18,526 nt of DNA, from the IMG/VR virus record IMGVR_UViG_2703718818_000001, positions 1 through 18,526 of that record. One strand, written 5' to 3'. The position numbers and the translations under genes are program-made. Origin of the DNA: a virus. Lineage: Duplodnaviria; Heunggongvirae; Uroviricota; Caudoviricetes. Numbering within the stretch: the stretch's first letter is position 1; every line of letters starts with the position of its first letter. Positions 1-14,613 of this stretch are shown here, piece by piece. The notes beneath the pieces were generated by a model. It made no database searches, was not told where the DNA came from, and saw nothing but the letters and a program-made list of their open reading frames with translations.

Positions 1-135
1 CTGCATCAGGGTATAAGGCGTGATGGCCACCGGACTACCAAATGGCTGCCACCCCTCCTTCAGTTTTTGAGTCAGTCGCTCCGCAAGGTCTGACGGCGAC
101 GCCGCCCTGACCACGTCATAGTGTTTAAATGCCAT
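1..135 (-). CDS. Hypothetical late-region protein, 5' part only (runs off the window edge); possibly a DUF1737-like protein that often precedes lysis genes
   Basis: ATG at 135-133 (minus) preceded by GGGAGG with a 4-nt spacer; frame open to position 1. Translation begins MAFKHYDVVRAASPSDLAERLTQKLKEGWQPFGSPVAITPYTLMQ. Not in the ORF track because it is truncated. Family name is recalled, not verified. Confidence 0.4.
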   Translation of the reverse strand, partial: MAFKHYDVVRAASPSDLAERLTQKLKEGWQPFGSPVAITPYTLMQ

Positions 136-332
136 GAATCCTCCCGGCCGGGATAATGTTGTGAGTCAGATAAGGGGCGGGCTGAAGTCCGGAAGTTACA
201 GGACAATGACTGGAGGAAGACTACAGCCCGCAATACGAAAAAGGCCGCGCAGTTGCGCAGAGTGATTACTGTCGGGTATTATTCGCCAGCTGAAAAATTG
301 ATTACTTCACGTTTTGTTGTTTATTCCTTGCT

Positions 333-361
333 GCCCGCGTCTCCCGGCGCGGGCTTTTTTT
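333..361 (+). terminator. Intrinsic-terminator-like hairpin (GCCCGCG / CGCGGGC stem) followed by a 7-T run
   Basis: 7-bp GC-rich inverted repeat at 333-339 and 348-354, then TTTTTTT at 355-361. Confidence 0.5.
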
Positions 362-366
362 GCATG

Positions 367-393
367 TAAAAAGGCTCCTGCGATGAGGAGCCT
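367..393 (-). terminator. Intrinsic-terminator-like hairpin on the minus strand (AGGCTCCT / AGGAGCCT stem, then a U run), back-to-back with the 333-361 hairpin
   Basis: 8-bp inverted repeat at 372-379 and 386-393 with a 6-nt loop; plus-strand A run at 368-371 gives a U tract after the hairpin on the minus strand. Confidence 0.45.
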
Positions 394-436
394 GGATATA
401 TGCCTAATCTCTGTATACAGCATGATGCCGGGTGCC

Positions 437-650
437 TCCCGGTGAATTCTGCAATGACCAGACAGAATCCGCAACTTGCCTATACAATACGCAACCAAAC
501 ATCTGTCATTATGCCCCTCCGCTCAGGGGGATTCACCATGCCTGTTCCTTTTAACAAACGCCCCGCAAAACAGACAACTGTCAACCGTCTGAATTGTGAG
601 ACATTTAAAATTTTCGGGGCGTAACTGATACCCGGTTAATTCTGCAATAT
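437..650. repeat. Two direct copies of CCCGGT-N-AATTCTGCAAT (437-457 and 631-650) flanking a ~170-bp segment with internal inverted repeats
   Basis: AATTCTGCAAT is identical at 445-455 and 638-648, with CCCGGT upstream of both copies. Inside the flanked segment ACGCCCCG (548-555) pairs with CGGGGCGT (614-621). Confidence 0.4.
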
Positions 651-1708
651 CATCCGTTCTGACTGACTAAATCCTGAACTTCCCTGACAGTCTGCTCAAA
701 ACGTTCAGTCTCCAGCTCAACGCCAGTTGCACGACGTCCCAGCGCCATCGCTGCTTTGACTGTCGAACCCGACCCCATGAAGAAATCTGCAACCAGGTCA
801 CCCGGACGACTGCTCGCGCTGATTATCTGCTGCAGCATTTCTGCTGGTTTTTCGCACGGATGTTTCCCGGGATAGTACTGCACCGGTTTATGCGTCCACA
901 CATCGGTGTACGGCACCTGCGCCGTCACGCCAAAATACCGCCGCAGATACTTATATTCACTCTGCAGTTCCGCATACTGCCGGTTCAGTTCACTGTATGT
1001 GCTGACCAGTTGGTGATGTGGCTTTTCCAGTTCTCCGCGCTGATGCTTCTCTTCTGCCACCCGGGCAAACAGCGCCTGTAATTTCAGATAATCGCTTTCG
1101 TCCGGTAGCTGCCACTGGCTGGCACTGAACCAGTGCGACACCATGTTTTTCTTTCCTGTGGCATCAGCAATCTGTTTTGCCGTTATCCCCAGGGCAGCAC
1201 GCGCATCACGAAAGTAAGCAATCAGCGGAGCCATCACATGCTGTTTCAGTGCCCTGCCCTTCGCCTCATACCCGGCATCTTTCGGACGATACGGCCCCTG
1301 ATAATGTTCCGCGAACAGAATGCGCTCTGTGGCGGGGAAATACGCCCGCAGGCTTTCCTTGTTGCACCCGTTCCAGCGTCCGGACGGCTTTGCCCAGATG
1401 ATATGGTTCAGCACACTGAAGCGTTCACGCATCATGATTTCAATGTCAGACGCCAGGCGATGACCACAGAACAGGTAAAGACTTCCGGCAGGTTTCAGCA
1501 CCCGCCAGAACTGCGCAAGACACTGGTCCAGCCATTTCAGGTAATCCTCATCCCCCGTCCACTGGTTATCCCAGCCCTCGGGCTTCACTTTAAAGTATGG
1601 CGGGTCTGTGACTATCAGATCGACAGAGTTTTCCGGTAAGGTCTGGATAAATTCCAGGCAATCAGCGTTGATTAGCTCACAACTGGATATTTTTACAGTA
1701 TTAGCCAT
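650..1708 (-). CDS. DNA methyltransferase, beta-class amino-methyltransferase (N6-adenine or N4-cytosine); no restriction partner visible (orphan)
   Basis: 352-aa ORF. Motif IV DPPY (LIVTDPPYF) near the N-terminus and motif I FxGxG (DFFMGSGST) near the C-terminus, the circularly permuted order of beta-class MTases. ATG at 1708. Confidence 0.85.
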   Translation of the reverse strand: MANTVKISSCELINADCLEFIQTLPENSVDLIVTDPPYFKVKPEGWDNQWTGDEDYLKWLDQCLAQFWRVLKPAGSLYLFCGHRLASDIEIMMRERFSVLNHIIWAKPSGRWNGCNKESLRAYFPATERILFAEHYQGPYRPKDAGYEAKGRALKQHVMAPLIAYFRDARAALGITAKQIADATGKKNMVSHWFSASQWQLPDESDYLKLQALFARVAEEKHQRGELEKPHHQLVSTYSELNRQYAELQSEYKYLRRYFGVTAQVPYTDVWTHKPVQYYPGKHPCEKPAEMLQQIISASSRPGDLVADFFMGSGSTVKAAMALGRRATGVELETERFEQTVREVQDLVSQNG

Positions 1709-1740
1709 AGATCAATAAGCACTTCTCTGATAGGCTCATT

Positions 1741-1759
1741 CTGCTTTTGCGCAAAGCAG
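1741..1759. promoter_or_regulatory. Near-perfect 19-bp palindrome CTGCTTTTGCGCAAAGCAG, 33-51 nt upstream of the methyltransferase start; candidate operator
   Basis: The sequence is its own reverse complement except for one T/A offset. Regulatory role is inferred from its position. Confidence 0.3.
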
Positions 1760-1845
1760 TGGGCCTGAGGTTTGCTTGTGATCCGGACGCATGAGCAGAT
1801 GGCTGGTGAGTGCCCCTAACACCCACCAGCCGCCCATTTACCACA

Positions 1846-1872
1846 AATAAAAAAGCCTTCAGGACTGAAGGC
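1846..1872 (-). terminator. Strong intrinsic terminator on the minus strand, overlapping the stop codon of the small upstream ORF
   Basis: Minus strand reads GCCTTCA-GTCC-TGAAGGC (7-bp stem, 4-nt loop) then TTTTTTATTT. Plus-strand hairpin at 1855-1872, A run at 1846-1854. Confidence 0.6.
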
Positions 1873-2056
1873 GTCTGTAACAACCGAACTGATAGTCTGC
1901 CAGACCCGCCATAACAAGCTGGGTCAGTATTAACTGACAGCGTTCGCGTGAAAGGTACGTATTCTGCGCAATCTCCCCGACTGTCGCCGGTTCGGTGACG
2001 CTTAATTCATTAAACACCACTCTGGCGGTTTCGGTCATATCCTGCTGTTTCAGCAT
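1859..2056 (-). CDS. Small hypothetical protein (65 aa), possible winged-helix DNA-binding protein; first ORF after pR'/tR'
   Basis: The ORF track start at 2137 is a GTG. I prefer the in-frame ATG at 2056, which has AAGGGA about 8 nt upstream. Translation MLKQQDMTETARVVFNELSVTEPATVGEIAQNTYLSRERCQLILTQLVMAGLADYQ... DNA-binding fold is an impression only. Confidence 0.45.
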   Translation of the reverse strand: MLKQQDMTETARVVFNELSVTEPATVGEIAQNTYLSRERCQLILTQLVMAGLADYQFGCYRRLQS

Positions 2057-2178
2057 GTCTTTTTCCCTTTTCCGGTTAACGTGACACACCAATAACTCTT
2101 GTCGAAAAAGCCAGCAAGCTGAAAGACCGGTATTCACCGCCGCCAGCGCGTTTACTGTACTGGAGTGATTTCAGTCAT

Positions 2179-2201
2179 AAAAAAACCCGCCTGGCGACGG
2201 G
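2179..2201 (-). terminator. tR'-like intrinsic terminator about 60 nt downstream of the predicted pR' start
   Basis: Minus strand reads CCCGTC-GCCA-GGCGGG (6-bp stem with one G-U pair) followed by TTTTTTT. Plus-strand A run at 2179-2185. Confidence 0.55.
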
Positions 2202-2234
2202 TGTAAAAAGTCTTCTAACGTCAGGCATAAAACG

Positions 2235-2277
2235 CCCATCGTTAGGGCAAATTTACCACAGATTCCGGAAAAATCAA
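2235..2277 (-). promoter_or_regulatory. Late promoter pR' with a lambda-type promoter-proximal pause element (Q engagement region)
   Basis: Minus strand reads TTGATT-16 nt-TAAATT-TGCCCT-AACGATGGG. Lambda pR' is TTGACT-17-TAAATT-TGACTC-AACGATGGG, recalled from memory. It lies immediately downstream of the Q stop codon. Confidence 0.6.
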
Positions 2278-2282
2278 CCTTG

Positions 2283-3104
2283 TTACCTGGTTACCTTTTT
2301 TAACTGCCTCTCAGCCCATGCTTCCTCAATATCAAACTTGCTCACCAGCGCATCATAGAATTTCTTAACTGTTTTTTCCCATGACGCGCGTGTTATCTGG
2401 TTTGTCACCTCGCATATAGCATTAAATGCCTCTGTTGACGGCAATCTTTCATAGCCACGACCACCACAACGCTGGCAGTCCCTGATAACAGGCATACCCC
2501 GTTTTTCAGACTCTTCACGATGAATGGCAACACCGCGCCCACGACAATCTTTACAGGCGGTGGAAACCTCCCCCTTTCCGCCACACTCCGGACAGGCAAC
2601 TTTTACCACCTCCCTGACTTTTTTCCATTCCTCCCAGTAAGACGGATACACGCCTTTTGTGCACTTTGCCCACACTGGCGGCTTACCATCCGGATACTGG
2701 ATCTTGTTTGTAAAAACCTCGCTTTCAATAAATTTTTTTCCATGACAACAGGAGCACTGTTTTTTGCTCGCCGCGCTACGGGCATAATCTTCAAACGCAT
2801 ACGAAGCCATAATACGCATCACTGCCGGTTTTATTTCTGCCGGGAGTTTTCTTAACGCCGCCACGCAATCACACCGACTGAGTGCATATTCTGTCAGCAA
2901 TTCTGTTGCCCGTTCTCTGTCATTCATACTAATGCCCATTTTCCCAAGGAACGCAGAAAACCCCATCTCAGCCCGATTCTGTGTCATGCCCTGCGCGGCC
3001 ATCACATCAGTGATACTCAGCGCATCTTTCGACGTTGAGGCCGATGCATCAGTCAGGCCGGGGGATTTTGGGGAGTAGTATTTCGGTAAATCTTCCAGTT
3101 TCAT
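2283..3104 (-). CDS. Late-gene antitermination protein Q (phage-82-type Q family, with Cys-rich zinc-binding region)
   Basis: 273-aa ORF with Cys clusters (CPECGGKGE, CKDCRGRG, CQRCGGRG). Position directly upstream of the pR'-like promoter. ATG overlaps the RusA stop (ATGA). Confidence 0.8.
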   Translation of the reverse strand: MKLEDLPKYYSPKSPGLTDASASTSKDALSITDVMAAQGMTQNRAEMGFSAFLGKMGISMNDRERATELLTEYALSRCDCVAALRKLPAEIKPAVMRIMASYAFEDYARSAASKKQCSCCHGKKFIESEVFTNKIQYPDGKPPVWAKCTKGVYPSYWEEWKKVREVVKVACPECGGKGEVSTACKDCRGRGVAIHREESEKRGMPVIRDCQRCGGRGYERLPSTEAFNAICEVTNQITRASWEKTVKKFYDALVSKFDIEEAWAERQLKKVTR

Positions 3105-3481
3105 TTTTTGACCTGCCCTTCAAGCATTATGGGGTAAATCTTCACCCCCAGCCGTCCACCAGATACTGGCTTGCCACGTACAATATTGATTTCATCAAAC
3201 TGCTCGTCATCAATAAGCACTCCCGCATGCGTCAGCGCATCCAGCGGTGCTTTCAGAATATTGTCCAGGTCACGACGACGCTTATCCGGTGGCTCTGCAA
3301 TAATTTTTATTGCCAGCCGTCCGGACAGGCTTAATTTCAGCCGCTGCTGGCGAACAATAAGCGCCACTGCCCGGCGATAGCGCTTTCCCTCCTCCGATAT
3401 AAAATATGTGCTGCCACGGCGTCGCCAGTAAGTGTTCACCGTCGGCGGGTAAGGCAAAACAAATTCTATGCGCTCGGTCAT
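3101..3481 (-). CDS. rusA: Holliday-junction resolvase RusA (crossover junction endodeoxyribonuclease)
   Basis: 126 aa; conserved RusA core KRRRDLDNILKAPLDALTHAGVLIDDEQ and C-terminal GGRL motif. Start ATG directly follows the upstream stop (TAAATG). Confidence 0.9.
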   Translation of the reverse strand: MTERIEFVLPYPPTVNTYWRRRGSTYFISEEGKRYRRAVALIVRQQRLKLSLSGRLAIKIIAEPPDKRRRDLDNILKAPLDALTHAGVLIDDEQFDEINIVRGKPVSGGRLGVKIYPIMLEGQVKK

Positions 3482-4540
3482 TTATGCTTTCCACTTCAGA
3501 ACACCCGAATTTCTCGCGTGCATTAAAAAACGAATCAGCAACAACAGCTGACTGCCGTGTTTCTCTTCAAAATCTTTTACCCCGGCGTGTAGTTCGTTAT
3601 GGCATTTACGGCATAACGGAATAACAAACAAATCGTCAGCCTTTGTTCCCATACCTCCCAGTCCATGACCAATGATGTGATGCGGATCATCTGCCTGATT
3701 GCCACACGTCATGCATTTCTGCGTTTTTACCCAGCGCGTGTATACAGGCATCTCTTCCCGTTGTGGTTTCTGGCGCTGGAGGTACTGAGCCGGAGACTCC
3801 GGATCAACGGCGATGCTTACTAACGTCTTTTCCTGGGGGGGATTTTGTTGCTGGTGGACGTGAAGTGGCAGCGCAATATTTTTTGTGCGCTGCTTCAGTA
3901 TGCTGGTGGCGGCCTGCTCTCCCGGTATGATGTCGCTCTCACGGTATACGGAGCGGATTTTTTCCGCTGGTAATCCCAGCGAACGACGCACTACTGCCTC
4001 AGGTAGTGCATCCACCACCTGATTGCAGACCGCCCACCAGGATAATTCGGCCAGCGATAACTCCCTCTCCTGCGTACTGCTTATTGCGTGACGGATGACG
4101 TCAATCATCCAGGCAACCAGATTCTGCTGAGCAAGTTGATCGAGTGATTCTGATGTCTGGTCGCGCAGCTGGTTGTCACAGTGCCAGCACAACACCATCG
4201 CGCCGGTACCGTAACGGTGAATGACGGTTTCGCTGTGATGATAATCACCGTGTGGCCACTGGCAGGATTTCACGTGACGTAATAACCAGTCAGACAGTGC
4301 ACCTGCACCACCTGCTGCACGAATAACCCGCTCATCGCTGAAAAATGGCAGTAATGTTTTATCCTCTGCCAGCGGCTGGCGAACGGCAGGAACGACTCCG
4401 GACGGCAGACCGCGCATGTTTTTCGGTTCCGGTTCCACCAATATTCTGCCGTTATGGAATGCTGACATTGATTCACGGCCCGGCTTAAGGAGCACCATCC
4501 CGAGTTCCGGTACCAGAACAGGTCGAAGTAATACCCGCAC
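3482..4540 (-). CDS. DUF968-family protein (YdfU-like) with a C-terminal HNH-like metal-binding nuclease motif
   Basis: 352 aa. C-terminal CMTCGNQADDPHHIIGHG...CRKCHNELH is a CxxC...HH...CxxC...H arrangement typical of HNH. GTG start at 4540 with GGAGG 4 nt upstream, abutting the upstream stop. Confidence 0.7.
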   Translation of the reverse strand: MRVLLRPVLVPELGMVLLKPGRESMSAFHNGRILVEPEPKNMRGLPSGVVPAVRQPLAEDKTLLPFFSDERVIRAAGGAGALSDWLLRHVKSCQWPHGDYHHSETVIHRYGTGAMVLCWHCDNQLRDQTSESLDQLAQQNLVAWMIDVIRHAISSTQERELSLAELSWWAVCNQVVDALPEAVVRRSLGLPAEKIRSVYRESDIIPGEQAATSILKQRTKNIALPLHVHQQQNPPQEKTLVSIAVDPESPAQYLQRQKPQREEMPVYTRWVKTQKCMTCGNQADDPHHIIGHGLGGMGTKADDLFVIPLCRKCHNELHAGVKDFEEKHGSQLLLLIRFLMHARNSGVLKWKA

Positions 4541-4541
4541 G

Positions 4542-4820
4542 TTACCTCCAGATGCGCTGCTGGAATGTGCGGGACGGACGCGGTGGGCGTTCGGAATAAG
4601 GGAGCCTGACGGAGATTATCCAGTGACGACGATCGAAGCTGAGATCTTTCTGAAACTCGTAACCACGTCTGCGGTAGCACTGGATCAGCCATTCGGCCTG
4701 TTCTTCAGTGCATGGGTCATGCTGGAACCAGTCAGATTTGAATGCATGAGAACGCCGCCCGTGCCTGCTGGCAGGGGCGGTGGAGTTATCCGAATTGTGT
4801 AATTTGGTATCTTGCGCCAT
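4542..4820 (-). CDS. Hypothetical nin-region protein (92 aa)
   Basis: In-frame ATG at 4820 (the ORF track's longer start is a TTG at 4874). Stop lies 1 nt before the DUF968 start. No family recognised. Confidence 0.4.
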   Translation of the reverse strand: MAQDTKLHNSDNSTAPASRHGRRSHAFKSDWFQHDPCTEEQAEWLIQCYRRRGYEFQKDLSFDRRHWIISVRLPYSERPPRPSRTFQQRIWR

Positions 4821-4889
4821 CGGTTGTCTCTGCTGGCGCAGCAGGTGCCAGTTGTTCAGGCTGGCGTGCGGCAATATTGTCTCTGATTT

Positions 4890-4920
4890 CTGTTGTCGTC
4901 AACAGGCAGCGTGCTATCAT
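4890..4920 (+). promoter_or_regulatory. Candidate parDE promoter/operator: inverted repeat CTGTTG-tcgt-CAACAG overlapping a -35-like element, with TATCAT -10-like hexamer
   Basis: Inverted repeat at 4890-4905; TATCAT at 4915-4920; ParD ATG at 4956. Operator role is inferred from the autoregulation typical of RHH antitoxins. Confidence 0.35.
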
Positions 4921-4955
4921 CGAATAGTGTTCTATCCTACTCCGTGAGGTTTACC

Positions 4956-5213
4956 ATGCGTACAACCCAACAATTCAGCATTACATTAACTAACGAGATG
5001 GCTGACATGGTGCGCGCCCGTGTGGCTTCCGGCGCCTATGCTTCAGAAAGCGAGGTCATTCGTGAAGGGCTTCGCGCACTGAATGAGCGCGATAAAGCAA
5101 TCGAAGCGTGGTTAACGCATTCAGCCGCCCCCTCTCTTGATTCTATCCGCGAAAACCCAAACAACGGACGCTCCATTTCACAGGTTCGCGTCGCGATTCG
5201 ATCCGGGAAGTAA
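4956..5213 (+). CDS. parD: Type II antitoxin, ParD/CopG-like ribbon-helix-helix family
   Basis: 85 aa from the ATG at 4956 (GAGG 7 nt upstream); the ORF track start at 4893 is a longer in-frame extension. Translation MRTTQQFSITLTNEMADMVRARVASGAYASESEVIREGLRAL... Stop is 5 nt before the ParE ATG. Confidence 0.75.
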   Translation: MRTTQQFSITLTNEMADMVRARVASGAYASESEVIREGLRALNERDKAIEAWLTHSAAPSLDSIRENPNNGRSISQVRVAIRSGK

Positions 5214-5218
5214 TCTGC

Positions 5219-5518
5219 ATGACATATGAAGTCATCATTACTCCTGAGGCCGAACAACAAATAATCAACCTGCACAGATATATAACGGAGAAAGCAGGGA
5301 ACATCATTGCTGACAATTATGCCAATGCGCTTCTTGATTATCTTGATGGGTTTTCTACATTCCCGCATCGGGGCAATAAACGCGATGATATTCGCCAGGG
5401 GATGCGGGTAACTCATTTCCGCCACAGAACGATTATTGCTTTTGCCGTTGATGGCAGAAAAGTCTTTATTGTCGGTATCTATCATGGTGGGCAAAGTTAT
5501 GAAACCGATTTCTTATAA
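5219..5518 (+). CDS. parE: Type II toxin, ParE/RelE superfamily
   Basis: 99 aa, small basic protein with the ParE/RelE signature pattern (...RVTHFRHRTIIAFAVDGRKVFIVGIYHGGQSY). Tightly coupled downstream of the RHH antitoxin. Confidence 0.8.
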   Translation: MTYEVIITPEAEQQIINLHRYITEKAGNIIADNYANALLDYLDGFSTFPHRGNKRDDIRQGMRVTHFRHRTIIAFAVDGRKVFIVGIYHGGQSYETDFL

Positions 5519-5597
5519 ACTTTTACCCACATCATTCCGGTGTTAGAATAAACCGTCTGCCCCTCTCTTACTGCGGATTCGTAGGCTATATAAATCA

Positions 5598-5633
5598 AAG
5601 ATCCCGGCTCATGTTTGTGGCGGGATCTTTTTT
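5598..5633 (+). terminator. Hairpin with T run downstream of parE (AAGATCCCG / CGGGATCTT stem, 14-nt loop, TTTTTT)
   Basis: 9-bp inverted repeat at 5598-5606 and 5621-5629, then T run to 5633. The large loop lowers confidence. Confidence 0.4.
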
Positions 5634-5720
5634 CGGCGATTTATCCCCAGCGGCAAATCGAATACACCACCAGCGCCACCGCCATTGCAATACCAACATT
5701 TGAGAAGGCCTCAGGCCAGC

Positions 5721-6251
5721 TCATTGGCGCACCTCCTTCGGCGGTTCTGGTAGCGGCATCCAGTGTGATGGTATCCACGACGCACCAGGTACTACCCACC
5801 CATCATTAGCGTCAGGATGCCCCGGGATGTAAGTCGCCCATTTCATTCGCCAGTCACCTTTCCTGTCAAACTCCCTGGCAACAAGAACGGCTGTTTTGGT
5901 ATCCGGCATTCGCTCACTACAGCTTATCCAACCATCCGGAGTTACCGGCACTGGCTTGGCGGTATAAAGCGGTGTTATATCTGCCCGAAAATTACATGCT
6001 TTATGCAGCCGCACCCACCGTTCGACTTCTGCTTTGTCAGAATACATACCAGTGAACGTGTTATATTCACGGTCAATTTGCGTGAATGTTACCTTCCACG
6101 CCACCGGCTCTGCTTCCAGAGATGCCAGTGCGATACGCAGGGAAGCCAGGATATTCCCCTGGTAATCATCAAGCCCGAAAGGAAGCTCATCACGAACGCT
6201 TTCATAATCGTTGATAGCCTGCTGCAGCCATTCTCTTGTGATAGTGCTCAT
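5721..6251 (-). CDS. Phage protein with DUF551-like C-terminal region
   Basis: 176 aa; C-terminal WISCSERMPD...WIPSHWMPLPEPP resembles DUF551 as I recall it. ATG overlaps the upstream stop (ATGA), with AAGGAGAGG upstream. Confidence 0.6.
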   Translation of the reverse strand: MSTITREWLQQAINDYESVRDELPFGLDDYQGNILASLRIALASLEAEPVAWKVTFTQIDREYNTFTGMYSDKAEVERWVRLHKACNFRADITPLYTAKPVPVTPDGWISCSERMPDTKTAVLVAREFDRKGDWRMKWATYIPGHPDANDGWVVPGASWIPSHWMPLPEPPKEVRQ

Positions 6252-6925
6252 GATTCCTCTCCTTTACCGGCTGCGGCGGCGATACGAAAAAGTTTAATGT
6301 CGCCGCTGTCTGAGTTCTGCTTACTCCAGATAAGTGACGTTTCTCGCCCGCGCTCGTTGATATGCATGAGATTTCTTTCGTCTGTAAAGCATGCAGGGAT
6401 GAAAGCTACAGGGAGTGGATAGAGGGCAACTGCATCATCACCCCATTGCTCAACTGCATATTTCTCATCGGTTGTGAACCTCGACATGAATGATGTGACG
6501 TTAGCATTCCTCATCCATGCAACTGGCTTAACGTCCCGCGCCTGCAGCTCAGCAATCCGCTTCTCTGCTGCTTCCAGCTCAACACGCAGCTTCCCTACCG
6601 TTAGCGCAATATCCTCGTTCTCCTGGTCGCGGCGTTTGATGTATTGCTGGTTTCTTTCCCGTTCATCCAGCAGCGCCAGCACGGTAGCTGGATTGGCTGC
6701 GGCGATGAATTCAGCATTGGCCTGCTGTTCCATTTGGAAATCTTCATCGAAACCGCTTTCAGGATGCGCTCCTTCAATTCTGCAAATGGGAATATATCCA
6801 GCAACTTCACGATGAATTAGCGCATCATCACCATCAAATCGTCCCTCTCCATATTCGAGCGACCACTCGCCACACGTTGCTTTTTCTGCCTTAGCACGCA
6901 ATGCCTGATAGTCAATCTTGCTCAC
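6248..6925 (-). CDS. Ead/Ea22-like protein (paralog 1)
   Basis: 225 aa. GTG start at 6925 preceded by GGAGG-CAACCA. N-terminal IDYQALRAKAEKATCGEW and NAEFIAAANPATVLALLDERE motifs are shared with the adjacent paralog. Confidence 0.6.
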   Translation of the reverse strand: MSKIDYQALRAKAEKATCGEWSLEYGEGRFDGDDALIHREVAGYIPICRIEGAHPESGFDEDFQMEQQANAEFIAAANPATVLALLDERERNQQYIKRRDQENEDIALTVGKLRVELEAAEKRIAELQARDVKPVAWMRNANVTSFMSRFTTDEKYAVEQWGDDAVALYPLPVAFIPACFTDERNLMHINERGRETSLIWSKQNSDSGDIKLFRIAAAAGKGEES

Positions 6926-7485
6926 TGGTTGCCTCCTTTGCGAAGCTCAGCGGCGAAGGCTACTGCGTGATCATGATGTTCAAGTGTGTATGCACACTCC
7001 GCAAACATCTCCACGCCCTGCGCTCGTACTTCAGCCAGGAAAGCATCGGTGGCAGGCATATTTCCTGTTGCTTTCATGGCCTCCAAGATAACCAGAACGC
7101 CATCTCGCCCAACCTCCTCAGCGATAACCTCGGTGTTGTCGCCAACAACATCGCAGAATGCCTGAACTGCTTTACGAGCAAGTGCATTCTCCGCCGCCAG
7201 CGCCACAAGATTAGCTTCCAGCTCTGCAATACGTTTGCTTTGGGCTTCCCGTTCATCCAGCAGTGCCTGTACTACTTCAGGGTTGAAAGCTGCAATAAAT
7301 TCTGCGTTGTTCTCTGCATTTTTCTGGTCATCAAAGCCAGGCCATTTGATAATGTCTCCGCAACGTTCATCCCCCGGCGTATGCACCGCATATGTATCAG
7401 TGCCCGGCGAAATGAATGCGACCCATTCGCCCTGGGTTGCCAGTTTTGCTATCTCACGTAGCGTCTGATAATTAATTTTTCTCAC
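6922..7485 (-). CDS. Ead/Ea22-like protein (paralog 2)
   Basis: Preferred start is the GTG at 7485, with the same GGAGG-CAACCA-GTGAG context as paralog 1 (the ORF track's longest start is 7512). Shares INYQTLREIAKLATQGEW and NAEFIAAFNPEVVQALLDERE. Confidence 0.6.
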   Translation of the reverse strand: MRKINYQTLREIAKLATQGEWVAFISPGTDTYAVHTPGDERCGDIIKWPGFDDQKNAENNAEFIAAFNPEVVQALLDEREAQSKRIAELEANLVALAAENALARKAVQAFCDVVGDNTEVIAEEVGRDGVLVILEAMKATGNMPATDAFLAEVRAQGVEMFAECAYTLEHHDHAVAFAAELRKGGNQ

Positions 7486-7777
7486 TGGTTGCCTCCTGGA
7501 AAATAACCGCATGTCCCAGTTTCTCCGCCAGTGCCAGTTCTGCCTTAGCGCCTGCCGACCGCTGCCAGCCTTTCAGCATGTAAATCGCATCCACGCAGCG
7601 TATCATCGCCATGCAAATATCCATGTAGTGTGGCTGTGTCAGTCCGTCCGGAAGTACTGCCGGGTTTAAAACGGTATGCCCTTCCCGTTTCAGTGCTTCT
7701 TCCGCCCTGTGAAACGCCTCACGGTTGAAATTTTCATATCCCGTCATCGGACCGGCGATATAAATTCTCACCCTCAC
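7472..7777 (-). CDS. DUF4406-family protein (nucleoside 2-deoxyribosyltransferase-like fold)
   Basis: 101 aa; N-terminal RIYIAGPMTG motif typical of DUF4406. GTG start at 7777 with AGGAGGG 7 nt upstream, overlapping the upstream stop. Confidence 0.65.
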   Translation of the reverse strand: MRVRIYIAGPMTGYENFNREAFHRAEEALKREGHTVLNPAVLPDGLTQPHYMDICMAMIRCVDAIYMLKGWQRSAGAKAELALAEKLGHAVIFQEATSEKN

Positions 7778-8055
7778 GCCTGAACCCTCCTGTCGAAATA
7801 AACGTAGTTATTCACTGCGCCCAACTTCATCCCAAACTTTTCGGCAATTTCCCGTCGGGGTACGCCACGCTGATGCAGTTGCCGCGCCAGCTCAATATCA
7901 CGCTGTGAACATTTGGCTGACTGGTGATAATCACCCCGTAACATCATGCAGATACCCAGTTCCCGCGCTTTCGTCCTGACGGCAGCCCCACTACGGCCAA
8001 TCAGACTGCCGATGCTTTCGACTGTCATCGTTCCCGCACACTGCCGGAGTATCAT
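7774..8055 (-). CDS. Hypothetical small protein with possible HTH
   Basis: The ORF track extends to 8178, but that N-terminal extension overlaps the upstream gene and is low-complexity. The in-frame ATG at 8055 gives a 93-aa product MILRQCAGTMTVESIGSLIGRSGAAVRTKARELG... Start is ambiguous (8055, 8028 or 8178). Confidence 0.4.
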   Translation of the reverse strand: MILRQCAGTMTVESIGSLIGRSGAAVRTKARELGICMMLRGDYHQSAKCSQRDIELARQLHQRGVPRREIAEKFGMKLGAVNNYVYFDRRVQA

Positions 8056-8087
8056 AATTTCCGCCCAGCGCCACTTCTTCCAGCCAC

Positions 8088-8849
8088 TCACCGCAGCAGC
8101 TCTCTGGTGGCGGTAATATCCCGGAGAATATCCCTGTGTTTGTTCAGTTCCCGCAGCGCGGCACAGACTCGCTCCCACTTCTGAACATCACTTTTCGCCC
8201 TGCGCAGCGCCAGGTTTGCCCTGCACAGGGACAGAAAAATCAGCTCATCTGCTTGCGTTTCGGTAAACGATGGCAACGACTGCACAATGTCCGCCACTGT
8301 TTCTGTTTTAATATCTTCCTGTGTTGCAGATTCCTGTACTGGTAACGCAACACCTGCTGGCTGAGGAAAGGCCTTACCATCATTTTCCGTTACCGGCACG
8401 GCTTTCGGCTCTGCTGGTAAATTATCGCCCGGCATGCAGTAACGAAATTTACCGTTCTGATTTACGCGTGCCAGGCGTCCCGTTGCGGTTACCACCGCCA
8501 ACGTGGAAGCAACCTTGCGAATGCTAACACCGAACTTATCCGCCAGTTCCTCACACGTTTTAGCCCCCTCCTGACCGATAAACTCAATCATCATGTCTGC
8601 GGTAACTTTTTGTTCGACCTCCCCGGTCAGCACATCCGGTACTTCAGACTGTTCTGGCTGCTCTTCGGTTACCCCGGATTCACCTTCGCCAGCCAGAAAC
8701 CAGATGTGACCCGCTTTATCAACAACGCCATTTCTTTTGAGTTCCCACAGTTCGTTGAGAACCTCTTCACGACTGATATCAAGCCGCTCAGCCAGTCCAA
8801 CAGAGCTGGCTTTTCCCATTGCTTTCAGTGCGTCAAAAACGGTTTCCAT
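8088..8849 (-). CDS. Hypothetical phage protein with N-terminal winged-helix-like domain (recalled as DUF1627-like)
   Basis: 253 aa. ATG at 8849 with AGGAGG 8 nt upstream. N-terminal [45 protein letters not shown]. Family name not verified. Confidence 0.55.
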
Positions 8850-8882
8850 TAAAATTTCCTCCTACAAAATCGCTTCTCAGAT

Positions 8883-9545
8883 TCAAATAAAACCAGCTGC
8901 CTTCCGGCGTTCGTATTCCTGTTTCAGCCATTCAATTGGCGTTGGCCCTTTCGGGTGTTTCGCCCCTTCCAGTTGTCGTCGCACTGGCGGAACACTCATC
9001 CCGTTACCAACATGCTTTGCCCATTTCGTCAGTTGCCGTTCCGCAAGTCGTTTTAACTCACCCTGCGTCATCTGGCGCTCAATCCCTCTGGTACGCATTT
9101 CGAGGCAGATGTGGTACAGCACAGGCTGTGGCCACGGGTATTTATCACTCCCGTCGTATCGCCAGGATTCATTGCGCCAGCGCCGGTACTCTTCCATCAC
9201 GGCATCCACCGTAAGACCAAATGGATTTGCCCCACTCTCCGAAATCAGTGCAACAAACTCAGCCAGGTCCGGGGGCCACGTTTCACCCGCCCGGCAGCGG
9301 TCCATGCACTGACGGCAGACCAGCCGGATTTGCTGTTCAGTCATCGCGCCAATCTGGGCAATCCAGAGCTTCGAAGGTGCGGCCCCGTTCTTCTGTGTCC
9401 AGCGGTTCGAATACACCTCCCCCATAAGCTCCCACAGCTTCCAGGCCGTTTCCGTTGCTGATAAATCCGTTTTCACGTTCCCACTGTTCGCGTGCTGCCC
9501 GGATTTCCTGAACTGCCCGTGATGCCGTGCCACCTGATGCTGCAT
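8883..9545 (-). CDS. Replication protein P-like (DnaB helicase loader)
   Basis: 220 aa. The C-terminal two-thirds align by eye with lambda P (GLTVDAVMEEYRRWRNESWRYDGSDKYPWPQPVLYHICLE versus lambda GLPNVSELVDMVYEYCRKRGLYPDAESYPWKSNAHYWLVTNL). ATG at 9545 has AAGGGGG 6 nt upstream. An alternative ATG at 9344 would cut the overlap with the O-like gene to 8 nt. Confidence 0.7.
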   Translation of the reverse strand: MQHQVARHHGQFRKSGQHANSGNVKTDLSATETAWKLWELMGEVYSNRWTQKNGAAPSKLWIAQIGAMTEQQIRLVCRQCMDRCRAGETWPPDLAEFVALISESGANPFGLTVDAVMEEYRRWRNESWRYDGSDKYPWPQPVLYHICLEMRTRGIERQMTQGELKRLAERQLTKWAKHVGNGMSVPPVRRQLEGAKHPKGPTPIEWLKQEYERRKAAGFI

Positions 9546-10347
9546 GGCTTACCCCCTTGCTGACTGGTTTTACCTGTGCCCTGACGTGCTGCACGTGGCG
9601 GGCAAATTTCTGCTCCCACTGAATCTGCGTGAAAACCTTCCCCTCCGCCATCCAGTAATCCCGGAATGCGGCAAGCTCTGCAGGTGTAAATTCCGGCTCA
9701 GGCAGAGCCATACCCCACACTGCTGCCCGTTGTCGAAAATCCGGCGACGGCTGCCAGACAGTGGTCATCGAAAATTTCCCGATCGGTTCGCTCAGGCCGT
9801 CCAGGTATTCAGGTTCGGCTGTCTGCAACGGCGCACCATGCGACTCACTGGTCGGAATACTCTCGCGTTCACGCACGTTATGTGTGGGGTTTAATTCTTT
9901 TAGATCTGTATCTTTATTAGTTGCTTTTGTGTTTGCGTCATGTTCAAACACAACACCAACATTTGTTTGAACACCTGTTAAATCTCTCTCTTGTTTTGTT
10001 TGAACATATACTTCCTTTCTGCTTCTTCTGGCCTGAACAGATGCTTTTCCGGCGGCTGATTTTTTGGTCAATTTTTCCCTGACTGATGCCAGATCTTCCT
10101 CAATCCGAAGATGCACCCATTCATCGCCGTTATCGCAAAAAAACTCCCGCAAGGATGGTTCCACATCAGCCCATCGCTCGTTAGTCAGACGGGAAATTTT
10201 TGCCAGCCTGTTTTTAGGTATTGGTTTCCCTGTTTGCCAGTAATTGAACATCAGCAACAAATACGCACCGTGCTCCTCTGCGGACAAATGCATGGTGTCA
10301 GCCAGGTAATCAGCTATGTACAGTTGCATGTATGGTAATGCGGCCAT
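9337..10347 (-). CDS. Replication initiation protein, O-like / DUF1376 (YdaU-like)
   Basis: Preferred ATG at 10347 with GAGG 5 nt upstream (ORF track start at 10401 is a TTG). N-terminal MAALPYMQLYIADYLADTMHLSAEEHGAYLLLMFNYWQTGKPIP is typical of DUF1376. The 3' end runs 209 nt out of frame over the P-like ORF. Confidence 0.65.
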   Translation of the reverse strand: MAALPYMQLYIADYLADTMHLSAEEHGAYLLLMFNYWQTGKPIPKNRLAKISRLTNERWADVEPSLREFFCDNGDEWVHLRIEEDLASVREKLTKKSAAGKASVQARRSRKEVYVQTKQERDLTGVQTNVGVVFEHDANTKATNKDTDLKELNPTHNVRERESIPTSESHGAPLQTAEPEYLDGLSEPIGKFSMTTVWQPSPDFRQRAAVWGMALPEPEFTPAELAAFRDYWMAEGKVFTQIQWEQKFARHVQHVRAQVKPVSKGVSHAASGGTASRAVQEIRAAREQWERENGFISNGNGLEAVGAYGGGVFEPLDTEERGRTFEALDCPDWRDD

Positions 10348-10433
10348 AATTGCCTCATCTTGTGACGAACCATCCTCTGGTGATATTCTGTGATTCCCCA
10401 ATCAACAGAATCAGCAGGGGGCTGGCATAAATA

Positions 10434-10871
10434 TCAATGCACCACAACAGACTCGCCGGATGACCCGCCGTCGCTGAAATACGCTTTCCGGTAAACGGCC
10501 TGGACAGCATCATCATGTGCATCAATTGCCGTGCTCAACGCTTCCTGCGCCGCCAGTAATGCACGGCGCTCAACAGTGTCAAAAATACTGAGGTGATAAC
10601 GCAGTTCACGCGGAAGAACAGTCAGGATAGCCGGAATTAGTGCCTGAATTTTTTCAACAGCATCAGGCGTATCCTTTTCAAGCCAGCGAAAAATATTTTG
10701 TATATTCAATCCAATACCCTCTGTCGTAGAGGTGTCATGCATTGGTGGATAAGTCATTTCAAGCTCAAAATATGCTGTCGCTATATCATCAGCGATTTTT
10801 TTGCGCCCTACCCTCGGATAAAGCAGCCACGCATTCATCGCCATGCGGATGTGCTCATGCTTGATTTTCAT
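10434..10871 (-). CDS. YdaT-like protein (cII-position regulator of Rac-type immunity regions)
   Basis: 145 aa beginning MKIKHEHI, which I recall as typical of YdaT. ATG overlaps the stop of the cro-like gene (ATGA). Confidence 0.65.
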   Translation of the reverse strand: MKIKHEHIRMAMNAWLLYPRVGRKKIADDIATAYFELEMTYPPMHDTSTTEGIGLNIQNIFRWLEKDTPDAVEKIQALIPAILTVLPRELRYHLSIFDTVERRALLAAQEALSTAIDAHDDAVQAVYRKAYFSDGGSSGESVVVH

Positions 10872-11128
10872 GAATCAACTCCCGCCGCTGCTTGTGCGTT
10901 AGCCTGATACTCAACAGGTAAACCATCGGTTGGATTAGGGTATTTATCAGGGCGCAATTCATGCGGAGTTACTCCCCAGTCAAGCGCCTCACATGCTGGT
11001 ATAACCTCCTCCGCTGGCACTCGTTTTTTAAACCACCCACTTATGGTTTGCGGTGTTTTACCAAGACGACGCCCTAATTCTGATTGGCTCATTATTGACA
11101 GGATTTTCACTTGAGTACTTTTTTGCAT
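10868..11128 (-). CDS. Cro/YdaS-like HTH regulator
   Basis: 86 aa with HTH segment SQSELGRRLGKTPQTISGW. ATG at 11128 with GGAGGG 4 nt upstream. Divergent from the repressor gene. Confidence 0.7.
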   Translation of the reverse strand: MQKSTQVKILSIMSQSELGRRLGKTPQTISGWFKKRVPAEEVIPACEALDWGVTPHELRPDKYPNPTDGLPVEYQANAQAAAGVDS

Positions 11129-11254
11129 GTTTCCCTCCGAACTTTACGATGACACCGATGATTACAAATTTAATTTTAAATTTCAACTTCTATTTGTAAT
11201 GCCACTTATCAATTTTTTCTGTAGGATCGCGGAACTAGTTTACGAGGGGTGGTG
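11129..11254. promoter_or_regulatory. Immunity-region divergent promoter/operator region (OR-like)
   Basis: 126-bp AT-rich intergenic region between divergent HTH genes. Inverted half-sites TTACAAAT (11162-11169) and ATTTGTAA (11192-11199); imperfect palindrome AAATTTAA-TT-TTAAATTT (11166-11183). Confidence 0.55.
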
Positions 11255-11647
11255 ATGATCTTTGTAAAACGCCTTCAGCAGGTGTTGCAGGAATTGAATA
11301 TAAACCAGTCAGAGCTGGGAAGACGTCTTGGTGTAAAACCCCAATCCGTGCAAGGTTGGTTGAAAGGCGTGATGCCAAGAATGGATAAACTGGAAAAATT
11401 AGCAGAGCTCTCACAACATCCCGTCCATTGGTTCTTTATGGAAGAAGAAACTCTCGGCGATAAAATGGCTGTATCCAGTAATGACAACCAACCGCAACTT
11501 ACAGAACAACAACGAAAAATCATATCGCTTTTAGATGAGTTACCTCAAAGCGACGCAGAGCAGATCATTCGTGATATGGAGCAAAAACGCGATTTCTATA
11601 AACGGAAACTTGAAGAGTTACTGCGGCAGAAAAACAAAACTGCCTGA
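11255..11647 (+). CDS. CI/RacR-like prophage repressor: HTH protein with no peptidase (S24) domain
   Basis: 130 aa from the ATG at 11255 (GAGGGG 5 nt upstream). HTH segment NQSELGRRLGVKPQSVQGW closely matches the cro-like protein's HTH. C-terminal half is charged and coiled-coil-like, with no Ser-Lys protease motifs. Confidence 0.7.
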   Translation: MIFVKRLQQVLQELNINQSELGRRLGVKPQSVQGWLKGVMPRMDKLEKLAELSQHPVHWFFMEEETLGDKMAVSSNDNQPQLTEQQRKIISLLDELPQSDAEQIIRDMEQKRDFYKRKLEELLRQKNKTA

Positions 11648-11677
11648 TGCATTCCTTTTCTGGAACGAGCATCAGGC
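11630..11677 (-). terminator. Hairpin (GCCTGATGC / GCATCAGGC, 18-nt loop) with a U-rich tail on the minus strand; candidate higBA terminator overlapping the repressor stop codon
   Basis: 9-bp inverted repeat at 11642-11650 and 11669-11677; plus-strand A-rich run at 11630-11641. Confidence 0.35.
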
Positions 11678-11693
11678 AAATGACTAGCAGATT

Positions 11694-12053
11694 TTATAAT
11701 CCAACCAGGCTTTCCAGGGGGATACCAAATTGATTATGAAGACGGCGAATCATTGGTAACGTAAGGCTTCTGGTACCATTCAACACCTCATAAACCCGAT
11801 TTTTTTTCCCAATTGCGGGTTCCAAATCTTTCACAGTCAGCCCCTGCTGTTCCATGCGAAATCTTATAGCTTCAATTGGGGATGGTGGCTCAATGGGATA
11901 ATGTTTTTTTTCATATTCCTCTATTAGCAAACACATCACCTCAAAAAAATCCCCCTCAGGCGTGTCAATTTCGGGCTCATTGTCGAACATGGGTTCAACA
12001 GCACGCAACGCGGCTTCATAATCTTGCTCTGTACGAATAGGTTTGATGTTCAT
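11694..12053 (-). CDS. higA: HigA-like antitoxin (C-terminal XRE-type HTH)
   Basis: 119 aa. C-terminal GLTVKDLEPAIGKKNRVYEVLNGTRSLTLPMIRRLHNQFGIP is an XRE-type HTH. ATG lies 2 nt after the stop of the upstream toxin gene, giving the toxin-first order typical of HigBA. Confidence 0.75.
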   Translation of the reverse strand: MNIKPIRTEQDYEAALRAVEPMFDNEPEIDTPEGDFFEVMCLLIEEYEKKHYPIEPPSPIEAIRFRMEQQGLTVKDLEPAIGKKNRVYEVLNGTRSLTLPMIRRLHNQFGIPLESLVGL

Positions 12054-12055
12054 GC

Positions 12056-12358
12056 TTACTCCAGTTCGATGGTATCAGCATCAATAGCATCGTATTCCTT
12101 GTGGTTTCCGATGAATTTAACAAATACCCATCCTCGCTGATACGCAATTGCAACAATTAAACGGTAATGATTACCTTTTATGTTGAATACCACGCGCCGG
12201 TTTTTCAATATACTGGCCGTTCGGTATTGTGCCTTAATGTCTGCTGGGCTTTTCCAGTCAGCTTTTGCCGCCTCATCCACCCATGCCCTTAGCGGTTGTT
12301 CTGCATCAGGATTCTCCGCCCAAAAATCCCTGAGTGTTTTAACTGAGATAATCTTCAT
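12056..12358 (-). CDS. higB: HigB-like toxin (RelE/ParE superfamily mRNA interferase)
   Basis: 100 aa from the ATG at 12358. C-terminal ...NIKGNHYRLIVAIAYQRGWVFVKFIGNHKEYD matches the HigB pattern as I recall it. The ORF track's 240-aa version (to 12778) is an upstream open-frame extension. Confidence 0.75.
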   Translation of the reverse strand: MKIISVKTLRDFWAENPDAEQPLRAWVDEAAKADWKSPADIKAQYRTASILKNRRVVFNIKGNHYRLIVAIAYQRGWVFVKFIGNHKEYDAIDADTIELE

Positions 12359-12369
12359 AACTGTATAGT

Positions 12370-12386
12370 AGTCCCATTTTGGGACT
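12370..12386. promoter_or_regulatory. Perfect inverted repeat AGTCCCA-TTT-TGGGACT, 12-28 nt upstream of the higB start; candidate HigA operator
   Basis: 7-bp arms at 12370-12376 and 12380-12386. Confidence 0.4.
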
Positions 12387-12401
12387 GATGCAACAGCTCG
12401 C

Positions 12402-12456
12402 AATTGCAAATTTAATAATAAACATGTTGACCAGTTAAATTTTAATTTGTAAATTG
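12402..12456 (+). promoter_or_regulatory. pL-like early-left promoter (TTGACC-17 nt-TAAATT) flanked by operator-like repeats related to those in the cI/cro region
   Basis: -35 at 12427-12432, -10 at 12450-12455. AATTGCAAATTTAAT (12402-12416) differs by one base from ATTACAAATTTAAT in the OR-like region, and ATTTGTAA recurs at 12445-12452. Confidence 0.5.
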
Positions 12457-12632
12457 TATCCATAAACCCACCCCGCCCCACAGAACGCAGGGCAATACTT
12501 CGAGTTACCCGGCAGTGGTCAGGGGTTAAGTAGCCAGCCTGAGGCGTATGAACATGACGGCGGGGATTACGTTTAACTATGCAGCAGGTTTTTTGTTCCG
12601 CTACCCCGGCGTTAAGGGGAAATGAGGTCAAC

Positions 12633-12785
12633 ATGGATACGCTCAATCTTGGCAACAACGAATCTCTGGTATGCGGTGTGTTCCCTAACCAGGACGGCAC
12701 GTTTACCGCGATGACGTATACCAAAAGTAAAAAGTTTAAAACCGAAGCTGGCGCGCGTCGCTGGTTAGCCAGAAACACTAACTGA
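12633..12785 (+). CDS. Small hypothetical protein (50 aa), first ORF of the early-left transcript; possibly YdaF/DUF1391-like
   Basis: ATG at 12633 with GAGG 5 nt upstream (the ORF track start at 12579 is a longer in-frame extension). Translation MDTLNLGNNESLVCGVFPNQDGTFTAMTYTKSKKFKTEAGARRWLARNTN. Family name is a weak recollection. Confidence 0.4.
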   Translation: MDTLNLGNNESLVCGVFPNQDGTFTAMTYTKSKKFKTEAGARRWLARNTN

Positions 12786-12822
12786 TTAGCACCAGTAAAA
12801 ACAGGTTGCCACTGGTTAATTT

Positions 12823-12842
12823 ACCCTGAAAAGTCAGGGTAT
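12823..12842 (+). other. Perfect hairpin TACCCTGA-AAAG-TCAGGGTA with no U tract; boxB-like RNA element or processing site
   Basis: 8-bp arms with a 4-nt loop, about 40 nt after the 50-aa ORF stop. The boxB comparison is speculative. Confidence 0.3.
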
Positions 12843-14137: not shown

Positions 14138-14147
14138 GGACGCGATA

Positions 14148-14521: not shown

Positions 14522-14613
14522 TCCACCAGCCATATTAACGCCATACCCGTTGATTAAGCATGCCAGCAATGGCAGGGGTTCGTACAACCTTAAAATAGTT
14601 ATGAGGTTTATCC

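Follow-up and report, generated by a model that had tools for sequence, protein, structure and literature searches.

A structured RNA leader and a linked small gene upstream of an M.EcoGII-type DNA methyltransferase gene in the late region of a lambdoid phage sequence

In the IMG/VR virus record IMGVR_UViG_2703718818_000001 (Caudoviricetes), whose positions 1 to 18,526 form the 18,526-nucleotide stretch analysed here (the window), a DNA methyltransferase (MTase) gene of the M.EcoGII type is preceded by a structured RNA leader of about 140 nt and by a small open reading frame (ORF). The minus strand carries every feature of the finding, namely the antiterminator gene Q, the small ORF, the leader, and the MTase gene. 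Gene content and position are already known, and in these respects the locus is an ordinary and very common prophage module; the structured leader and the linked small protein appear to be its only undescribed parts. It is proposed, tentatively and with rather less than even confidence, that the leader represents a previously undescribed class of cis-regulatory RNA, which gates the translation of toxic M.EcoGII-family MTases in thousands of Enterobacterales prophages, including many Shiga toxin (Stx) phages. In many lineages it would be accompanied by a dedicated 65-aa winged-helix-like protein recognising the dyad-symmetric apex of one of its helices, and the whole would be a lambdoid counterpart of the com-mom system of phage Mu, made from unrelated parts.

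All sequence features listed in a first-pass annotation of this DNA are present on the minus strand where it had placed them. Its interpretation is upheld in part: an orphan beta-class MTase lies downstream of Q, a pR'-like promoter and a tR'-like terminator, and no restriction endonuclease (REase) gene accompanies it, while the insulation of each gene by its own terminator and the idea of a controller (C) protein do not stand. The features of the unit and of the control region upstream are as follows.

2283..3104, minus strand: gene of the Q antiterminator, 273 aa (Pfam PF03589 Antiterm, E=4.4e-53; relatives are annotated as antitermination protein)
2238..2277, minus strand: pR'-like late promoter (-35 TTGATT at 2277-2272; -10 TAAATT at 2255-2250 with TGG before it; -10-like element AACGAT at 2243-2238)
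2178..2202, minus strand: tR'-like intrinsic terminator (stem from 2202 to 2185, then T7; terminator scan)
1859..2056, minus strand: small ORF, 65 aa, probably winged-helix (ATG at 2056; homologs, purifying selection, synteny with the MTase)
1849..1872, minus strand: hairpin and T6 overlapping the stop of the small ORF, an intrinsic terminator in the Escherichia-type copy (terminator scan)
1703..1843, minus strand: structured RNA leader of the MTase mRNA (covariance-model match, minimum-free-energy fold, covariation in two sets)
650..1708, minus strand: orphan beta-class N6-adenine DNA MTase, ortholog of M.EcoGII, 352 aa (PF01555; identity to M.EcoGII; PDB relatives)

The spacer from 1843 to 1703 is a four-helix RNA directly upstream of the MTase. 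Helix P1 (1837-1791) pairs AUGGGC-GGCUGGUGGGUG... with ...CACUCACCAGCC-GCUCAU, and helix P2 pairs GGAUCA.AAGC (1784-1774) with GCUU..UGAUCU (1721-1709), ending at the base before the AUG at 1708. The portion P2a (1714-1709) abuts this AUG, P2 as a whole pairs the 12-13 nt directly 5' of it, and no Shine-Dalgarno sequence is found at normal spacing before it. P3 is formed by 1766-1760 with 1738-1732. P4 (1759-1741) is the 19-bp near-palindrome that the first-pass annotation had reported 33-51 nt upstream of the MTase start at 1708, and it is indeed found there as CTGCTTT GCGCA AAAGCAG on the mRNA (minus) strand. The minimum free energy of the window leader is -61.4 kcal/mol (z=-3.5), with the same helices as in the RNAalifold consensus; RNAalifold on 16 closer sequences recovers P1 to P3. 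The G-U pairs of the leader occur on the sense strand only. When the spacer is aligned from 16 loci, it is more conserved than the coding DNA on both sides, with 79-82% identity in the leader versus 41-57% at third codon positions of both flanking genes in the same locus pairs.

A covariance model was built from nine enteric leader copies. In a first search, the leader was found in 71 of 80 diverse IMG/VR loci, which had been fetched with a 54%-identical family representative, at scores of 35-111 bits. Most of these matches end 6 nt into the MTase match and the rest within about 30 nt of its start, except two that end about 125 nt upstream. The second search set comprised 58 further IMG/VR loci, six loci without a match in the first search, and the window; the leader was found in 34 loci, all among the 58 further ones, and in none of the six that had failed to match before. 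Across both searches, six matches end about 125-155 nt upstream of the MTase match start. The window itself has a single match, 1843-1703, at 114.8 bits.

In the alignments fitted to this model, 89.6% of cells pair in the first set, versus 77.2% in shuffled and 31-38% in slid controls, and 92.9% in the second set, versus 82.2% in shuffled controls. None of 500 shuffles reaches the observed pairing in either set, and slid controls overall give 27-40%. Double changes are seen in 28 of 40 pairs in the first set and in 24 of 40 in the second. In the pair 16-45, for example, UA occurs 26 times, GC 22, AU 5, and CG 4, and a change of P2b from AAGC/GCUU to GGAC/GUUC is seen in both sets.

No Rfam 15 family matches the leader at E<=1 within 1-3200, and at E<=10 only generic hairpins far below gathering are found in 1690-1890. 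No description of it was found in the literature searched. The text consulted in the Breaker/Weinberg motif-discovery papers mentions no methyltransferase-associated motif, and that of the M.EcoGII papers mentions neither an upstream small ORF nor a structured leader.

Several other candidates in the spacer were tried. A small peptide was rejected in view of offsetting 1-nt indels among relatives and unconserved candidate frames and stops. The alternative pairings UGGGC:GCCCA and GCUCA:UGAGC can form in 97% and 70% of cells, respectively, with no covariation and no better than in shuffles. Pairing in trans with STnc100, a small RNA (sRNA) encoded further downstream, or with the pR'-tR' RNA gave duplex energies no better than those of shuffles. 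A potential helix UGUGA:UCACA co-occurs across lineages, with no covariation visible. The scan found no promoter on the minus strand of the spacer, where the conserved TATCAA does not end in T as a -10 hexamer would.

Individual copies differ near the start codon. M.EcoGII-type copies carry GGCUUAAUGAUCCAUGCUUAA before the start, at positions equivalent to 1721-1700 of the window, and in them an upstream out-of-frame AUG lies 4-5 nt after AGG; it opens a mini-ORF of four codons, whose UAA overlaps codons 2-3 of the MTase. This AUG is UUG in the window and is not conserved in other genera, and in a distant subfamily its equivalent lies within the 3' strand of P2. One E. coli-type copy in IMG/VR has a 29-nt insertion within P1 and an intact MTase ORF.

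The small ORF runs from the ATG at 2056 to its stop at 1859; if read from a GTG at 2137, the end coordinate of the first-pass annotation, it would encode 92 aa. Its homologs (n=335) are mostly 63-65 aa long. Since synonymous sites are saturated while nonsynonymous divergence (dN) is 0.08-0.18, the small ORF is a real, conserved protein-coding gene under purifying selection. A genome scan at the species level showed an MTase homolog (60-97% identical) about 150 nt downstream of it in 15 of 17 loci, and small-ORF/MTase loci were found in Escherichia, Kluyvera, Salmonella, Citrobacter, Pseudocitrobacter, Buttiauxella, Klebsiella, Scandinavium, Phytobacter, and Proteus. This linkage persists where the upstream Q is unrelated or undetectable.

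The encoded protein is probably a winged helix, judging from profile similarities. The window protein matches Pfam TrmB at E=0.0024, short of the gathering threshold. In a set of 18 diverse homologs, nearly all weak Pfam matches are to winged-helix families (DprA_WH in 8 of 18, TrmB in 8 of 18, MarR_2, HTH_20, ArsR, and others), the best being DprA_WH at 1.6e-4 and TrmB at 3.7e-4, all below gathering. The best PDB profile match (E=0.005) is to residues 31-70 of an O-methyltransferase, which we take to be its winged-helix (wH) domain. The name given to the protein by PGAP is 'TrmB family transcriptional regulator'.

The MTase frame, from 1708 to 650, matches PF01555 (N6_N4_Mtase) over residues 29-340 at E=1.1e-43, with a score of 150.2 bits (cut-off 26.7). 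The DPPY motif occupies residues 35-38 and FMGSG (FxGxG) residues 310-314; motif IV thus precedes motif I, with the target recognition domain (TRD) between them, which is the beta-class order. The earlier assignment of a 352-aa beta-class enzyme with DPPY before FxGxG is borne out by both the Pfam profile and the translation, and the PDB relatives (RsrI, CcrM, MboIIA, DpnA) are beta-class enzymes too. The protein is identical to M.EcoGII at 328 of 349 residues (94%), counted against the M.EcoGII sequence (GenBank EGT69837.1) in Table S1 of the SUPREM paper (PMC11551740), whose text contains a few evident optical character recognition errors, so that the real figure is likely to be similar or slightly above this. 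Compared with M.EcoGII, the window protein has 3 additional residues at its C-terminus and about 20 differing positions. M.EcoGII is likewise an orphan of the beta class (DPPY, TRD, FxGxG) on a lambdoid prophage.

M.EcoGI and M.EcoGII come from prophages of E. coli O104:H4 C227-11 (Murray et al. 2018; PMC5778455). M.EcoGII is a non-specific MTase that methylates adenines irrespective of context; it stays silent in lysogens, is harmful if constitutive, and is 'likely just switched on' at induction, and phage-encoded MTases are assumed to protect against restriction (PMC5778455). Homologs with about 93% amino acid similarity to M.EcoGI and M.EcoGII in O111 Shiga toxin-producing E. coli are listed as 'nonspecific' in REBASE-based tables, and no motif was detected for them in lysogen methylomes (PMC6602927). 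The window MTase is probably sequence-non-specific as well. Phage 1720a-02, named as carrying an MTase very similar to M.EcoGII (PMC5778455), matches the window from 338 to 1907 at 95% DNA identity, including the leader and part of the small ORF.

The MTase is an orphan. Pfam scans of 23 further ORFs of the window (the 17 selected as gene candidates were 90 aa or longer, and 4 of them gave no match) found no REase domain, as the first-pass annotation had stated. It had also named a restriction gene just past the window among the observations that would overturn its view, and none lies beyond the left window edge in the closest relatives, which encode a nanS-p esterase, a holin, and an endolysin there; relatives have tRNAs, stx, nanS-p, and lysis genes annotated next to the MTase. 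A relic of a restriction-modification (R-M) system was therefore rejected, since there is no REase domain anywhere in the window or its relatives.

Directly downstream of Q, sequence comparison shows that the window shares with lambda the block GGTAAATTTG.C..AACGATGGG. The window hexamers in this region presumably correspond to lambda pR' and its sigma-dependent pause element. The arrangement resembles that of lambda in having a Q gene, the shared -10/pause-element block, a terminator about 65 nt downstream, and cargo between tR' and the lysis genes; the Q protein here belongs to the PF03589 family. A stop at tR' would leave a pR' transcript of about 65 nt, whereas StxS, the corresponding short RNA of Sakai Stx phages, is 258 nt long (PMC7547250).

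The terminator scan gave nine terminator-like sites in 1-3200, versus 3.0 +/- 1.9 in shuffles. Stems rich in GC with a U-run behind them are found on the transcribed (minus) strand at 2202 to 2185, 1872 to 1855, and 393 to 372, and the first two of these terminators lie between pR' and the MTase gene. The one reported earlier at the end of the small ORF is present as a 7-bp stem (1872 to 1855) followed by T6, and it overlaps the stop codon at 1859-1861. In other genera, its stem is kept through compensatory changes, since its 5' arm is coding, and the T-run is degenerate or absent: the stem is followed by UUUCUGCUGUG in Kluyvera and Salmonella types and by AUAA in Scandinavium and one further type, and in the aligned Proteus-type copies the hairpin is missing. 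A good T-run is limited to Escherichia-type copies. A further 'terminator-like' hairpin at 2233-2249 (minus strand; AACGAUGGG) is unlikely to terminate pR' transcripts because it overlaps the predicted pR' start and pause region.

Taken together, the model that we regard as probable is that the MTase is a late anti-restriction enzyme, dependent on Q and kept off by terminators as well as by a translation-blocking leader. The unit of small protein gene, leader, and orphan, probably non-specific MTase downstream of Q, pR', and tR' would be a standard lambdoid late-operon copy of the M.EcoGII family. In the lysogen, pR' transcripts would stop at tR' and at the second hairpin and T-run after the small ORF, and the harmful enzyme would not be made. 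On induction, Q-modified RNA polymerase would read through the terminators, and the enzyme would methylate adenines of the replicating phage DNA before packaging, leaving the progeny broadly protected from restriction. The leader may act as a second, post-transcriptional gate; because P2 pairs the segment before the AUG and there is no normally spaced Shine-Dalgarno sequence, translation should need opening of the leader. Candidate triggers are the co-encoded winged-helix-like protein, by analogy with Mu Com, a ligand, or processing. The orphan status, the late position, and the proposed anti-restriction role are consistent with the published views on M.EcoGII.

Several points weigh against this model. 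Q dependence of MTase transcription is suggested by position and terminators only, and an internal promoter may bypass the leader. The non-specificity of the enzyme is read from its identity to M.EcoGII, from which this allele differs at the positions mentioned above. The covariation was counted on alignments that had been fitted to the covariance model, and when the 28 most diverse leaders are aligned with MAFFT without regard to structure, RNAalifold does not recover the helices, the stems being misaligned. In addition, the AF2 model of the small protein (pLDDT 73.5) gave no winged-helix or RNA-binding match in fold searches. Finally, the leader occurs without a detectable small ORF in roughly half of the diverse loci. 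Therefore, the small protein cannot be the universal trigger of the leader, and the RNA leader is a more constant partner of the MTase than the small ORF.

The near-palindrome may also act at the DNA level, with a dimeric winged-helix 65-aa protein binding 1741-1759 as an operator and repressing or activating transcription into the MTase gene. This alternative, which is compatible with the RNA model, is considered unlikely, though it is the likeliest of the alternatives. In most lineages, the self-complementarity of the P4 apex extends through its centre, despite a differing hexamer (AGCGCT, GTGCAC, GTCGAC, ACGCGT, AACGTT, TGCGCA, and others), and a group with a distant small-ORF homolog (...EFILEQMI...GRYSL) has palindromic apices too, while lineages with a non-palindromic loop lack the small ORF upstream. 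Such a distribution agrees with the apex being recognised, as DNA or as RNA, by a dimeric protein, and the convergence of the Pfam matches on winged-helix DNA-binding families, as well as the PGAP name, points the same way. A neutral alternative is the mutational 'perfecting' of hairpin DNA, in which perfect palindromes can arise through template switching. The P4 stem covaries as an RNA helix (UA to GC in both alignment sets), and the plain loops of some lineages (CGAA, CUAA, or CUAUGAA) argue for an RNA hairpin. Furthermore, some lineages with a palindromic apex have no detectable small ORF, neither the scan nor the alignments gave a promoter-like site found or conserved near the palindrome, and the winged helix itself is indicated by matches below gathering and was not returned by fold searches. 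The first-pass annotation had suggested, as speculation, that the small ORF and the palindrome form a controller-like regulator, an idea close to this alternative. The locus resembles C-protein R-M systems in having a small putative helix-turn-helix protein and a dyad-symmetric sequence near the MTase gene; it differs in that there is no co-regulated REase, no Xre/HTH_3 domain (no HTH_3 match at E<=0.1 in Pfam), and a dyad that lies downstream of the small gene (1741-1759 versus 2056-1859) within a covarying RNA helix, the hairpin P4. The small ORF is thus not a C-protein; a regulatory partnership of some kind between small ORF and palindrome is possible, given the tight linkage of the ORF to the MTase and the loss of the dyad-symmetric P4 apex in lineages without the ORF that have plain loops.

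The leader could also be a metabolite riboswitch, for example for S-adenosylmethionine (SAM) or S-adenosylhomocysteine (SAH), or another sensor of the lytic state, in which a ligand opens P2. Its multi-helix junction, its many invariant unpaired nucleotides (UGUGAA, UCAC, AAC, GCCC, UAUCAA), its fixed position relative to the start codon, and its presence without the small ORF in many lineages would all suit such an element, as would the UGGGC:GCCCA alternative pairing open to 97% of the sequences. That pairing involves invariant columns without covariation, however, no Rfam riboswitch class was matched, and to our knowledge riboswitches are rare in phage late operons; overall, this reading appears improbable. 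Less probable still is that the MTase serves the lysogen as an epigenetic host regulator expressed from its own promoter instead of having a late phage function. Some prophage MTases do reshape host transcription, such as M.EcoGIII (PMC6602927), and up to nine copies of the block occur per genome. On the other hand, M.EcoGI and M.EcoGII are unexpressed in the lysogen and no matching methylation was seen in the single-molecule real-time (SMRT) methylomes of homolog carriers (PMC5778455, PMC6602927), constitutive expression is harmful (PMC5778455), the scan gave no promoter-like site upstream, and two terminators and a start-occluding leader precede the gene. The possibility that the spacer is conserved merely through recent horizontal spread of the module, its structure being incidental, deserves hardly any credence. 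The module is highly mobile among Enterobacterales prophages; nevertheless, the spacer is far more similar than flanking third codon positions in the same locus pairs, the synonymous sites of the small ORF are saturated, and compensatory double changes occur in 24-28 of 40 pairs.

The closest parallel to the proposed control is the com-mom operon of phage Mu, where the hairpin bound by Com adjoins a translation-inhibition stem in which the start codon of mom lies (PMC6483171). In Mu-like prophages, com is followed by non-specific adenine MTases of a Dam-like class, such as Hin1523, Hia5, and Nma1821 (PMC3299994). In both systems, a small gene, to which a regulatory role is given here by analogy, lies just upstream of a harmful, late, broad-specificity adenine-modifying enzyme; the start codon region is within an RNA stem, the 'translation inhibition structure' of Mu, as is predicted here; and the purpose in Mu, protection of phage DNA from many restriction enzymes, is that proposed here. 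The parts are different. Com is a zinc-finger RNA binder with four Cys, whereas the small protein is winged-helix-like, lacks CxxC pairs, and shows just two conserved Cys (C40 and C59) in its alignment, so that its likeness to Com is architectural only. Mom has an acyltransferase fold and the Hia5-type MTases are Dam-like (alpha order), whereas the MTase here is of the beta class, and a short hairpin pair in Mu contrasts with an element of about 140 nt and four helices. The likeness is one of design, not of homology.

M.EcoGII is a widely used reagent in chromatin footprinting, Fiber-seq-type assays, MadID, and RNA m6A tools, and its natural role and control have only been guessed at. The locus shows the native setting of the family, directly after Q, pR', and tR' and, in Stx phages, on the same late transcript as the toxin genes. 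The folded leader burying the start codon and the linked small protein offer a concrete, testable control element for the silence of M.EcoGII-type enzymes. If the proposal holds, it would explain how a harmful methylase of essentially every adenine is tolerated in more than one third of complete E. coli genomes, bring a new RNA family into the regulation of phage late genes, and provide a handle on restriction evasion by spreading Stx and other lambdoid phages. Should confirmation fail, what is left is an ordinary, already annotated prophage methylase.

The block from the small ORF to the MTase (650-2137) is present at a coverage of at least 80% in 2,091 of 5,426 complete E. coli genomes. Among 341 matching phage entries, there are records annotated with Q, a hypothetical protein, and a DNA methylase, followed by tRNAs and stx. 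More than 300 Stx-phage records carry the order Q, small ORF, MTase in their annotation, and phiP27 and SfV (orf48/orf47) are also among the annotated phages. One Enterobacteriaceae genome has lost the MTase and kept the small ORF together with most of the leader, and in E. albertii NBRC 107761 the MTase reading frame has an internal stop; both show that the enzyme decays while the upstream parts persist.

The genes and elements flanking the unit in the late-proximal region are listed below.

4540-3482, minus strand: DUF968/HNH-like gene
3481-3101, minus strand: rusA
600..636: 37-bp junction in the place of the cassette of three tRNAs and stx2bAB of the closest relative (collinearity with NZ_CP027586)
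362..570, minus strand: sRNA STnc100, related to PasD (Rfam RF02076; its terminator is the hairpin from 393 to 372)
333..361, plus strand: GC-rich hairpin followed by T7, convergent with the STnc100 terminator (terminator scan)
1..134, minus strand: next late gene, N-terminus of a nanS-p type SASA esterase cut by the window edge (tblastn/blastn to the start of the 'SASA family carbohydrate esterase' of NZ_CP027586)

The closest record is the Stx2b prophage NZ_CP027586, which is 98% identical over 1-4600. Positions 1-599 of the window correspond to 3001-3599 of that locus and 637-2300 to 5264-6927, and the 1,664-bp block of three tRNAs and stx2bAB between them (3600-5263) is represented by 37 bp (600-636) in the window. 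The window is an 'empty-site' version of an Stx2b prophage. ARAGORN found no tRNAs in the window, the interval from the MTase to the next gene included. In Stx relatives, the STnc100 terminator is located past stxB, separated from the MTase by three tRNAs and stxAB.

The match to STnc100 is full length (model positions 1-206; window 570 to 362; 168 bits versus a gathering threshold of 47). STnc100 is a prophage sRNA related to PasD and found in the Q-proximal late region beside an esterase gene (bioRxiv 10.64898/2026.05.13.724894); the window copy likewise lies there, between the MTase and the nanS-p gene. It is outside the MTase unit and explains only the 'terminator downstream of the MTase'. 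The first-pass annotation had placed back-to-back terminators at 333-393, and two hairpins are found there, 257-317 nt past the MTase stop: one on the plus strand at 333-354 (9 bp, 8 of them GC, then T7) and one on the minus strand from 393 to 372 (8 bp). Because 362-570 on the minus strand is a full-length STnc100 match, the latter is the terminator of STnc100, and the former is oriented oppositely. Insulation of each gene by its own terminator is thus at most true for the small ORF of this lineage and fails for the MTase.

The other window ORFs, by Pfam, form a Rac-like early region with integrase, recE-like, rha/ash, HigBA, cI/cro-type helix-turn-helix, ydaT, O/P-like, Ea22, and ParDE genes. 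A ParD/ParE toxin-antitoxin pair lies at 4893-5518 (plus), on the strand opposite the late-proximal genes, and a second pair, a HigB-domain protein with a helix-turn-helix partner, at 11694-12778 (minus). An 812-aa protein at 14614-17052 (plus) combines an N-terminal Exonuclease VIII (RecE) region with a C-terminal Rv2179c-like 3'-5' exoribonuclease domain. On the plus strand of the immunity/early region, Rfam matches above gathering were obtained for DicF (13038-13089, 61 bits), isrK (13337-13413, 65 bits), and C4 antisense RNA (13438-13525, 78 bits), the last two being within the 5' part of a Rha/Ash-type ORF (13286-14137).

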